Below the pieces are notes generated by a model. That model saw nothing but the letters and a program-made list of their open reading frames with translations, had not been told where the DNA came from and made no database searches. Position numbers and translations under genes: made by a program. This document shows, one piece after another, positions 9,224 through 12,010 of a DNA stretch of 64,000 nt. Numbering within the stretch: the first letter of the stretch is position 1; each line of letters opens with the position of its first letter. This stretch comes from a bacterium (GTDB lineage: Bacteria > Zhuqueibacterota > Zhuqueibacteria > Zhuqueibacterales > Zhuqueibacteraceae): NCBI GenBank assembly GCA_044869275.1, contig JBIOXB010000130.1:1-64000 (forward strand), given 5' to 3'.

Positions 9224-11545
9224 TTGCGCGCAGGGATTGTTTCTCCAAGCGATTTCGCGGGTGATCATTCTCAACTTCTCATGTTCTCACCATCCCCGAC
9301 TTCCCGACAAACCGGCCGGCAGCCAGCGGTGGAAAACTCTCCCCTCCTCGTGCCGGCGGTGGTTCCGCTTTCTCCCGGCCGCCAAAGGCGCAGCCAAAAA
9401 CTCATTCAGATGTCGCAGATTTTCAATGCTCTGGCCTACGCCTGCCTTGCGGATCAAGTGCTGACCTTGTATGCCCTCAAGCTTGGCGCGAACTCGGTGT
9501 TCGTGGGATTGCTGGCCTCGTTGGTTTATCTCACCATGTTTTTTGGCCTGGTGGGCAAACGCATGGTGGAGCGCAGAGGGCCGGTGCGTGTTTTTGGCAT
9601 GAGCTGGCTGCTGCGTTACTTGCTCGGCGGTGTCATGGCGCTCGCGCCGTTTGCCGCGAGTCGGTATGGCAAAGATGCTGGTCTCATTATTTTGTTGCTG
9701 GGCGCGTTGCTCTTGTTCACTTTCCGCGCCCTCGGCAACACCGCCAACACCCTGCTCATCGCGCGCATCACCACCCCTTACAATCGCGGCCGCTTGGTCG
9801 CCGGCCAATTCACGATTTTCTACGCCGGCAGCATGCTGATGTTGTTGCTGTACAGCTTGCTGCTCGGCCGCGAAGCGCCGTTGTGGCGGGTTCAGGCGTT
9901 CATTGCCTTCGGCGTCGTGTCCGGCGTGCTCTCGGCGTTGATCGCCCTGCGCATCCCCGAAATTCCCGAACCGCGCCAGGAAAAAAACGTCACCATGCGC
10001 AGCATGTTTCATCTGTTCGGACAGACGCCCGCGCTGCGCCGCTTTTTGATTTCAGGAACGTTGACGCGCACCGTGCTGGCCGCGGCCCTGCCGTTTTTGG
10101 TGGTGAGCATGCGCGTGGGCGCCGGGCTTCCGGAAGATCGGATTTTGCTGCTGGTCATTTTTCACAGCGTGGGCAATGTGCTGGCCTCTTTCATGAATCG
10201 CCTGTATCTCGATCGCTTCGGCGCGCGGCCCATGATGCTGCTGTATTGCCTCTGTCTGGCGATGGCATTGTTCAGTTGGGTCGTGACGCCGGGCCTGCAC
10301 CCCGCCTTTATTGCGCTCAGTTTTCTGATGTACGGCCTGGTCTTTCCCGGTTTCACCAGCGCGCAGGTGCCCTATTTGTTCAATCTTGTGCGCGCACGCG
10401 AGCAATATGCCGCTTCGCTCTTCTCCGAAATCGTCATGGGCATGGCGGGATTTGCCGGCGCCTTCTGCGGAGGCTTGTTGATCAATCAGTTGCAGGATTG
10501 GACCGGCGGCGGATTGGCGCCGTTCCGCTGGTACTTTTTCATTCTCGCGCTGATTTCCCTCGCGGCGCTGGCAGCCACCCAGCGCGTGTCGCCGGTGCGC
10601 GACCGCAGGCTGCGCGAGGTGCTGAACATCTTTCTTTCGCCGCGCGATTTGCAGGCGCTGCTTTACTTAAGCAATTTGACCGGCCGCATGACCGCGGAGG
10701 AGGAAGGAGAGGCGCTCGACCGCATCGGCGATTTTGGCTCGGCCTTGAGCGAAAGGGAGTTGCTGGAGGGACTGGCCTCGCCGCGTTTCGTGGTGCGCGC
10801 GGATGCGCTCCAGGCCTTGCGCAATGTGCCCCCCACGCCGGCCCTCACCCGTGCATTGATCGAAGAGCTCAAGCATCATGAATTCACCACCGCCTATCTC
10901 GCCGCCGATGTGCTGGGCATTTATGCCGTGCGCGAAGCCATTCCACTCTTGCGGCAAACCTTGCGCTCGCAGGATTTGTTCTTGCGCAGCAAAGCCATTC
11001 TCGCCCTGGGCCGGATGCGCGACGAAGAATCCTATCACGACATACAGCAGATTTTTCGCACCACGAGCAATCCCCGCTTGCTGATTCACTGCATGAATGC
11101 CTTCAGTTTCTATGCCCGTCCCGAGCTGATCCGTGAAATCCTGGCGCGCGTGCAGGCCTTCGAGTCGCCGACCGTGCGCAGCGAAGCGCATCTCACCCTC
11201 GCCGATCTCTGCGGCACCGGCGAGGATTTTTACAGCGATTACAAAGCCTATCTGCTCGATGCCAACGTCGCCGCCGGCATTTTGCAGGATCTGGCGGAAA
11301 AACCGAGGGAGGAGCGGCGCCGGCTGCGCTTTCTGGAGGTGGCCGTCACCTATCACGGCGACCCGCAGACCTTCAGCGCTGCGCTCGGAGCCTTGTGCCT
11401 GTCTTTCGATTGTTCGTCGCACGCACGAGAAGTGCTCGCGCTCTTTGGGGGCTTTTTAGAAGAGCAGGAGGTCAAGCTCGATTTGCCGTTGCGCTTTTGC
11501 CTGGCTTATTGCGCGTTGGCGTTGGGGCTGGAGGAGGAATCTTGA
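9224..11545 (+). CDS. MFS-like 12-TM protein fused to C-terminal HEAT repeats
   Basis: About 12 hydrophobic segments followed by HEAT-like 'VRADALQAL', 'AADVLG..EAIPLL' and 'LRSKAILALG'. The true start is uncertain and may lie downstream, near 9410. Confidence 0.8.
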   Translation: MRAGIVSPSDFAGDHSQLLMFSPSPTSRQTGRQPAVENSPLLVPAVVPLSPGRQRRSQKLIQMSQIFNALAYACLADQVLTLYALKLGANSVFVGLLASLVYLTMFFGLVGKRMVERRGPVRVFGMSWLLRYLLGGVMALAPFAASRYGKDAGLIILLLGALLLFTFRALGNTANTLLIARITTPYNRGRLVAGQFTIFYAGSMLMLLLYSLLLGREAPLWRVQAFIAFGVVSGVLSALIALRIPEIPEPRQEKNVTMRSMFHLFGQTPALRRFLISGTLTRTVLAAALPFLVVSMRVGAGLPEDRILLLVIFHSVGNVLASFMNRLYLDRFGARPMMLLYCLCLAMALFSWVVTPGLHPAFIALSFLMYGLVFPGFTSAQVPYLFNLVRAREQYAASLFSEIVMGMAGFAGAFCGGLLINQLQDWTGGGLAPFRWYFFILALISLAALAATQRVSPVRDRRLREVLNIFLSPRDLQALLYLSNLTGRMTAEEEGEALDRIGDFGSALSERELLEGLASPRFVVRADALQALRNVPPTPALTRALIEELKHHEFTTAYLAADVLGIYAVREAIPLLRQTLRSQDLFLRSKAILALGRMRDEESYHDIQQIFRTTSNPRLLIHCMNAFSFYARPELIREILARVQAFESPTVRSEAHLTLADLCGTGEDFYSDYKAYLLDANVAAGILQDLAEKPREERRRLRFLEVAVTYHGDPQTFSAALGALCLSFDCSSHAREVLALFGGFLEEQEVKLDLPLRFCLAYCALALGLEEES

Positions 11546-11672
11546 CGTGCATCCCAAAACCGCCTGCCCAGTCTTGAAGCGGCAAGAACTTCCGGGCACC
11601 AGCGGACGAGGGCCCATATCCCTATTTCTGCGCAGGCGGGGCGATTTTTTCGCAGCGCCTGCAGGCCCCTGG

Positions 11673-11798
11673 TCATTGGTTGATCACGATATCCGGCAAT
11701 ACGATTTCCTGCGCCGGTGCCTTGGCCTTGCCTTGGAAAACCACAGCGACAAGCATTAAGAGCACAGCCATGATGGTCACAACAATCTTCGCTCTCAT
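11673..11798 (-). CDS. Unannotated 41-aa secreted peptide, MRAKIVVTIMAVLLMLVAVVFQGKAKAPAQEIVLPDIVINQ
   Basis: Translated by hand (below the ORF-track cutoff). AAGGA RBS, classical N/H/C signal-peptide layout and an upstream sigma54 consensus. Confidence 0.7.
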   Translation of the reverse strand: MRAKIVVTIMAVLLMLVAVVFQGKAKAPAQEIVLPDIVINQ

Positions 11799-11858
11799 GA
11801 TCGTAGTCCTTGGTTGAGGTTCGTTGGAGGTGAAGACCACTATTCACCCGGCCAAAAG

Positions 11859-11875
11859 AGCAACCGCCATGCCAG
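11859..11875 (-). promoter_or_regulatory. Sigma54 (RpoN) -24/-12 promoter
   Basis: The minus strand reads CTGGCATGGCGGTTGCT, matching YTGGCAC-N5-TTGCW with exact GG-N10-GC spacing, 60 nt upstream of the peptide ATG. Confidence 0.7.
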
Positions 11876-12010
11876 CACAAAAAGCTTGACTTGATCGCAC
11901 TTTTTACGATAAAACGTCACGTAGTGTATCACGCACAGCGAGACGGTGTTCTGTTCTCGCACACGCCGTAAATTATGCGTGAAGCCTCTGGCAATTCTCT
12001 GTGCCCCTCT

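Follow-up and report, generated by a model that had tools for sequence, protein, structure and literature searches.

What does a 41-codon reading frame on the minus strand of a 64,000-nucleotide stretch of bacterial DNA (the window) encode, and what could so short a product do? A preliminary description of this locus had proposed a secreted pre-peptide driven by sigma54, acting as a Phr- or arbitrium-like signal, as a mimic of a TonB box, or as the regulator or cargo of an amidase cassette nearby. The reading frame, the ribosome-binding site and the -24/-12 box that it reported are all in place (Table 1). We are highly confident that the reading frame is a genuine gene and that a conserved motif near its C-terminus is its functional part. 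The gene belongs to a protein family not described before, in which it is the smallest member, and its sequence describes a real, conserved, probably sigma54-driven small protein that is predicted to be exported.

Table 1. Features of the mini-gene, its upstream region and the longer genes that carry its motif
Feature	Position	Strand	Remarks
41-aa ORF	11673..11798	minus	ATG at 11798, TGA at 11673; homologues and pN/pS 0.11-0.22 within groups
Residues 1-25, predicted Sec signal peptide or membrane anchor	11724..11798	minus	basic n-region, hydrophobic h-region, G/S/T-x-A25
Conserved motif E-I-x-L-P-x-I-x-I, residues 31-39	11682..11708	minus	kept across three architectures
RBS AAGGA, inside conserved TCAAC-N-AAGG leader	11807..11811	minus	8 nt ahead of ATG
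Sigma54 -24/-12 promoter box CTGGCATGGCGGTTGCT	11859..11875	minus	exact consensus match; predicted transcription start ~11848
Candidate activator-binding site TGT-N11-ACA	11947..11963	minus	starts at -115; inferred
Palindrome GCGAGA-N11-TCTCGC	11960-11938	minus	overlaps the TGT-N11-ACA candidate site
GC-rich hairpin 3' of stop	11631..11663	minus	no canonical terminator; not conserved
Sigma54-preceded secreted motif proteins	L107:1471-1845 (G111); L120:1486-1788 (G098); L132 (G103); L139 (G099)
Genus-g2 179-199-aa protein	L157:1501-2040 (G011); L158 (G016); L159 (G014); L160 (G002)

A stand-alone gene and its promoter

We detected clear homologues in G001, a genome of the same genus (73% identical), and in three genomes of genus g4 (G004, G007 and G010; 37-39% identical). 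With the window's own genome (G000) included, the mini-gene occurs in 5 of the 125 genomes searched from the class and 5 of the 167 searched from the phylum. A further g4 genome without a match, G013, is 79% complete, and its contig ends within the neighbouring gene; one metagenome locus, L030, also carries the mini-gene. Protein searches returned 14 relatives at first, five representatives at 50% identity in a further search, and the final set comprised 23 of 4453 candidates, 20 of them at an E-value of 1e-12 or better and three weak. We found no paralogue in the gene's own genome, no relative among 113 pattern matches in viral contigs, no Pfam match beyond noise and only weak signal-peptide noise in NCBIfam. 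The PDB gave 0 matches and the Atlas no usable match.

The codons are under purifying selection. The pN/pS ratio is 0.22 between G000 and G001 and ranges from 0.11 to 0.21 in the g4-type group. Of 40 columns, 18 vary at the first codon position, 20 at the second and 35 at the third. Between G000 and G001 the ratio is lower in the tail than in the signal (0.12 vs 0.26). In the core family the stop is conserved after 41-46 codons, and this, together with the selection on codons, rules out a truncated transporter gene. A search for longer forms of the core family returned a single protein with an N-terminal extension only. Such extended database forms, and likewise the longer GTG start at 11840, would cross the promoter or lie behind it; neither is conserved, and we rejected both. 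The unpublished genome G001 underlies the same-genus homologue, the G000/G001 pN/pS, the within-genus separation from the amidase described below and one activator site, and the unpublished G014 contributes one of the four g2 proteins; the results from g4, L030 and the other families are independent of both.

The promoter box carries GG at -25/-24 and, exactly spaced from it, GC at -13/-12, the signature of a sigma54 promoter. Taken alone it is weak evidence, because 19 of 100 window shuffles also contain a strict box (one was found in the 64 kb and 0.19 were expected). It becomes convincing because it is conserved across mini-gene loci: GGCA-N4-GGTTGC stands 59-61 nt ahead of the ATG in 6/6. 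Of 19 genomes of the family, 5 contain the pattern of promoter plus leader, and the reversed control gave 0. All 14 loci of the wider set for which DNA was available carry an upstream sigma54-type box (TTGC in ten, TTGT in the four from g2). The relaxed TTGC pattern has a chance of ~1% per 200 nt, and these 14 loci, being related to one another, amount to about six lineages. Of 59 small ORFs that have an RBS and a signal-like start, the 41-aa ORF alone has a sigma54 box; it ranks fifth on the TonB profile. We infer from these sequences that sigma54 transcribes the mini-gene. The preliminary description had staked its reading partly on conservation of the ORF and promoter and on the presence of rpoN, and its observation holds on these three counts: homologues with purifying selection (pN/pS 0.11-0.22), a promoter core that is invariant in 6/6 mini-gene loci, and an rpoN gene in the genome.

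The 6.67-Mb genome holds only 16 strict sigma54 boxes, the window's among them, but 46 strong matches to sigma54 activators among the 48 listed. Several of these boxes precede genes for secreted proteins or response regulators. Upstream of the promoter, where an activator site would be expected at about 80-150 nt, we noted a candidate activator site, TGT-N11-ACA, which is present in 6/14 loci (500 shuffles gave a mean of 0.45 and a maximum of 3). It lies at -113 to -116 in G000, G001, G098, G103 and G099, which span three families; the spacing was picked by eye from four loci, and G103 and G099 are fresh confirmations. The site is missing in the g4 loci and in 3/4 g2 loci. A tighter consensus, to which 13 of 340 boxes conform but the site in the window does not, fails to define a regulon.

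The GC-rich hairpin reported after the ORF does exist, but its significance and conservation do not hold up. Its z-score is -1.63, 15 of 200 shuffles fold equally well, and five homologous loci fold no better than their shuffles. We found no terminator on the minus strand after the ORF, where the hairpin has no U-tract, and a conserved terminator hairpin is ruled out on these two grounds.

The mini-gene stands alone, independent of its neighbouring genes, which change from lineage to lineage. They are a 192-aa ORF and an MFS-HEAT gene in G000. In G001 a CsgG-like gene lies upstream, and a 317-aa ORF and then the convergent MFS-HEAT gene lie downstream. In g4 and L030 the mini-gene has the gene of an M61 peptidase on one side and that of an amylo-alpha-1,6-glucosidase on the other. 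The amylo-glucosidase loci that we fetched from g1, g2 and g3 showed no mini-gene next to the amylo-glucosidase gene. No neighbour at any mini-gene locus matches a TPR receptor, a sensor, an activator, tonB, exbBD or a transporter gene.

The window's surroundings contain several larger genes. On the plus strand, 9224-11545 encodes an MFS transporter with fused HEAT repeats; in both G000 and G001 this gene and that of the peptide are convergent. On the minus strand, 15093-12011 holds the four-gene amidase cassette: a membrane-anchored Amidase_2 protein of 478 aa, a 184-aa membrane protein resembling the N-terminal part of the amidase, a 172-aa two-helix coiled-coil protein and a secreted ORF of ~192 aa. 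A CHASE2 cyclase gene precedes the cassette in both G000 and G001, and a search of four g4 genomes did not find the cassette. A co-oriented run at 22479-15520 (minus) encodes a 378-aa secreted protein, a FecR-domain protein, a 908-aa outer-membrane-like protein and the CHASE2 adenylate/guanylate cyclase.

Predicted export and the conserved tail

The first 25 residues have two or three basic residues and a hydrophobic core with a mean hydropathy of 2.5-3.2 in the core sequences. Ala25 is present in 15/15 of these, as is Gly, Ser or Thr at residue 23, and AlphaFold predicts a helix at 2-25 and coil beyond. Judged by inspection against the Sec and signal peptidase I rule (PMC10269814), cleavage between Ala25 and Lys26 fits 15/15 core sequences. 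It does not fit three distant relatives (P0024, P0025 and P0026), which have no Ala-x-Ala site and a Pro-rich linker. The preliminary description had the ORF almost entirely signal peptide, yet the conserved tail takes up 16 of the 41 residues. Its two cleavage sites fare no better. Cutting after Ala-Lys-Ala would put Pro at +1, which argues against that site since Pro at this position hampers signal peptidase I (PMC10269814), and cutting between Ala-Pro-Ala and Gln calls for an Ala at residue 29 that only 5/15 sequences have. A mature product of 12-14 residues is thus unlikely, and one of 16 residues or an uncleaved anchor fits better. Cleavage after Ala25 would release 16 residues (18 in most g4-type proteins). 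Some relatives may remain as uncleaved membrane anchors, given the three proteins that have a Pro-rich linker in place of an Ala-x-Ala site.

The tail is the part that persists. In distant relatives of 41-57 aa the signal and linker are altered and the tail is retained, so the motif is the conserved unit. Over 20 chosen proteins its positions are E in 19, I in 19, and L, P, I and I/F in all 20, and in 16/20 it lies directly behind the N-terminal hydrophobic segment (residues 28-47). We read 13 of 24 weak profile matches in one search and 14 of 30 in another; the majority were ordinary signal peptides, and six motif carriers were kept.

Longer proteins carry the same motif. Secreted proteins of 124, 100, 89 and 83 aa (G111, G098, G103 and G099, from three other families) have it just behind the signal peptide. 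Those of G103 and G099 also contain a second box-like strand, E-E-T-L-V-V-T, and in G111 and in G098 a cyclase-like gene lies upstream of the motif gene. Four of the eight genomes of genus g2 encode a protein of 179-199 aa that was absent from the 21 other genomes searched in the order. It consists of a long n-region, a hydrophobic segment, a variable linker with the motif, a coiled coil and a conserved R-P-S-V C-terminus. In 4/4 of these proteins the motif is a conserved island in the variable linker before the coiled coil, and in 4/4 a sigma54-like box with TTGT for TTGC lies upstream; a structure model built on only four sequences (pLDDT about 50) has no folded domain at the linker. Within the family, the mini-gene and the 179-199-aa protein never occur in the same genome. 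The homology of the longer forms rests on motif and promoter and not on strong E-values. The recurrence of the motif in longer proteins and the sigma54-type box at 14 loci together point to E-I-x-L-P-x-I-x-I being a dedicated exported docking motif.

Separately, L109 (G024) and L024 (G027) each contain a secreted ORF that is interrupted in frame by a stop directly behind P-C-G, and in L109 an open, protein-like frame continues past it. This stop is a possible site of selenocysteine readthrough.

Candidate partners of the exported strand

The suggestion that the tail mimics a TonB box could be compared with the host's own boxes. The genome has 36 plug-domain and 11 TonB_C matches; contig C212 carries two tandem tonB paralogues (L032/L033), and four longer proteins have a divergent TonB_C domain (L036, L038-L040). 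We located the host boxes upstream of the plugs by a motif search in which the peptide was not used. A profile made of nothing but 15 mini-protein tails ranked 20/36 boxes among the best 1% of 1.7 million windows. It did so at one register only (0-1 boxes at eight others), and none of 200 column shuffles reached 20 boxes. Tails and host boxes are equally acidic (charge -1.4 vs -1.3), and one of seven other genome-wide regex matches to the motif is the TonB box of the C53 transporter.

This register-specific likeness stands, but other comparisons count against a mimic. Scored on a profile of the host boxes, the tail in the window reaches 1.4 bits, whereas the lowest of the 36 leave-one-out boxes reaches 6.6, and the tails of relatives outscore only 0-3 of the 36. 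The invariant Leu-Pro of the family is rare in host boxes (L in 5/36, P in 3/36), and E at motif position 1 is outside the five commonest residues there. Strands of receiver domains match the tail profile equally well or better (25/36 in the top 1%, taking the top 36 of 68 domains and the best of 21 windows each), so part of the TonB-box signal is that of a generic proline-led strand. A profile of all 20 motifs matched 14/36 boxes, which 5/200 shuffles reach; one of the eight long forms alone matched 6/36, which is not significant (81/200 shuffles). The tail is not N-terminal to a plug or bacteriocin domain, the place that marks a TonB box. By sequence, the likeness to a box is confined to the motif's second half, and the TonB-box reading looks weaker than first suggested.

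Our preferred model is nevertheless built on TonB, because it is the sole known periplasmic strand acceptor with ligands that match in register and charge. The conserved sigma54-type promoter would drive the stand-alone mini-gene, and Sec would export the product, which may be cleaved after Ala25 or retained as an anchor. A short extended strand, E-I-x-L-P-x-I-x-I, would then be displayed in the periplasm, where it likely joins an envelope protein by beta-strand addition. The partner would most likely be a TonB-type C-terminal domain, and the decoy would damp TonB-dependent uptake whenever the sigma54 activator is on. Synthetic TonB-box peptides in the periplasm do inhibit TonB (PMC9841981). 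We hold only tentatively that the predicted exported strand is a TonB-type decoy under sigma54 control. The fuller version is somewhat unlikely: that this uncultured class uses a cell-encoded, sigma54-switched decoy, one dedicated linear motif that comes as a mini-peptide, within a disordered secreted protein or on a coiled-coil multimer, to shut its own TonB-powered uptake, plus phage or bacteriocin entry, on a signal. We found no natural cell-encoded free TonB-box peptide in the literature, of which subscription papers were thinly covered. If the motif binds TonB, it would be the natural counterpart of synthetic TonB-box inhibitors and a new regulation of outer-membrane uptake.

The main rival to the TonB decoy, which we consider unlikely, is that the motif is a ligand of the periplasmic domain of a sensor kinase that feeds the gene's own sigma54 activator, making the product a feedback regulator of envelope stress that resembles CpxP/ZraP or MgrB/SafA in action but not in sequence. 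The sigma54-type box at 14/14 loci and the candidate activator site shared by five loci of three families, with its constant distance, suggest that the motif and its regulator go together. The strictness of the E-I-x-L-P half hints at a single specific partner, and the three relatives with no Ala-x-Ala site look membrane-anchored. Two of the strict G000 boxes (C29 and C71) precede small heat-shock-like genes. CpxP inhibits CpxA, and ZraP acts similarly (PMC12046405), but the family has no Pfam or NCBIfam link to either. Nor does any mini-gene locus have a sensor or activator gene next to it, and the tighter activator consensus, which overlooks the window's site, leaves the regulon undefined. 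If the motif does bind a sensor, this lineage, which has over 40 sigma54 activators, would have a periplasmic docking motif and a feedback loop that are both new.

It is distinctly unlikely that the strand binds another envelope partner or serves as a sorting tag; the receiving side could be, for instance, TolA, a donor-strand assembly machine, ExbD (if the strand mimics a D-box), or a protease or PDZ domain in the periplasm. Its alternating hydrophobics would suit any strand-addition site, it sits right behind the hydrophobic segment in 16/20 proteins, and in genus g4 the M61 peptidase encoded upstream bears a PDZ domain. That neighbour is missing in g1, however, and a tag on a peptide without a cargo domain is hard to explain. 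The host's TonB D-box-like and TolB N-terminal segments, identified by position and by eye, are basic whereas the motif is acidic. The proline-flanked D-box pattern (PMC10907165) is also absent, the motif's Pro being internal.

We regard as improbable a third alternative, in which the released peptide of 16-18 residues is a diffusible signal for an unlinked receptor, by quorum-sensing logic outside the RRNPP systems. Size, signal peptide and conserved C-terminus suit a propeptide (criteria 1-2 of PMC10075063), and the tails differ between two subgroups. Against this, the motif is near-constant across families, which would be unlike private signalling codes, and it also occurs inside proteins of 83-199 aa and in apparently uncleavable forms. 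Membership in the Phr/arbitrium group itself, as the preliminary description had it, can be dropped, because the RRNPP signature (PMC10075063) needs an adjacent TPR receptor and there is none at any locus. Finally, the proposal that the peptide regulates, or is cargo of, the amidase cassette, with which it is co-oriented in this genome ~210 nt downstream of the last stop codon, is largely refuted and extremely improbable, as the peptide has its own promoter, the amidase of G001 (79% identical) sits on a contig other than the peptide's, and none was found with this query in G004, G007, G010 and G013, three of which carry the peptide.

Comparison with known systems

Small membrane regulators of the MgrB/SafA type are among the closest known systems, and zraP is under sigma54 control. 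Like the periplasmic feedback inhibitors CpxP and ZraP (PMC12046405), the mini-protein would be a small exported regulon product that could act on an envelope sensor. It differs from CpxP, ZraP and Spy in having no profile match, no folded or helical periplasmic domain and no linked two-component genes. The D-box of TonB, a ligand of ExbD, is a seven-residue hydrophobic/polar pattern between prolines (PMC10907165), whereas the Pro of the mini-protein is internal and only six residues follow it.

The TonB boxes of transporters and colicins, and the synthetic inhibitor peptides made after them (PMC11658791, PMC9841981), resemble the tail in being short and acidic, in ending on hydrophobic-x-hydrophobic-Thr and in lying near an exported N-terminus. 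In contrast to them, the mini-gene is free-standing, without plug, barrel or toxin domain, and its product has the invariant E-I-x-L-P half that is missing in host boxes and scores below nearly all of them. The propeptides of RRNPP systems (Phr, AimP and PapR; PMC10075063) are likewise small and combine a basic n-region and hydrophobic core with a short C-terminus that is conserved, and by inspection the mini-protein falls within their size range (10-100 aa with a Sec signal). The mini-gene differs from them in having no adjacent gene for a 250-500-aa TPR receptor, and its host has a Gram-negative envelope (a TonB system and a KDO transferase). Unlike theirs, its motif stays conserved from one family to another and recurs within longer proteins.
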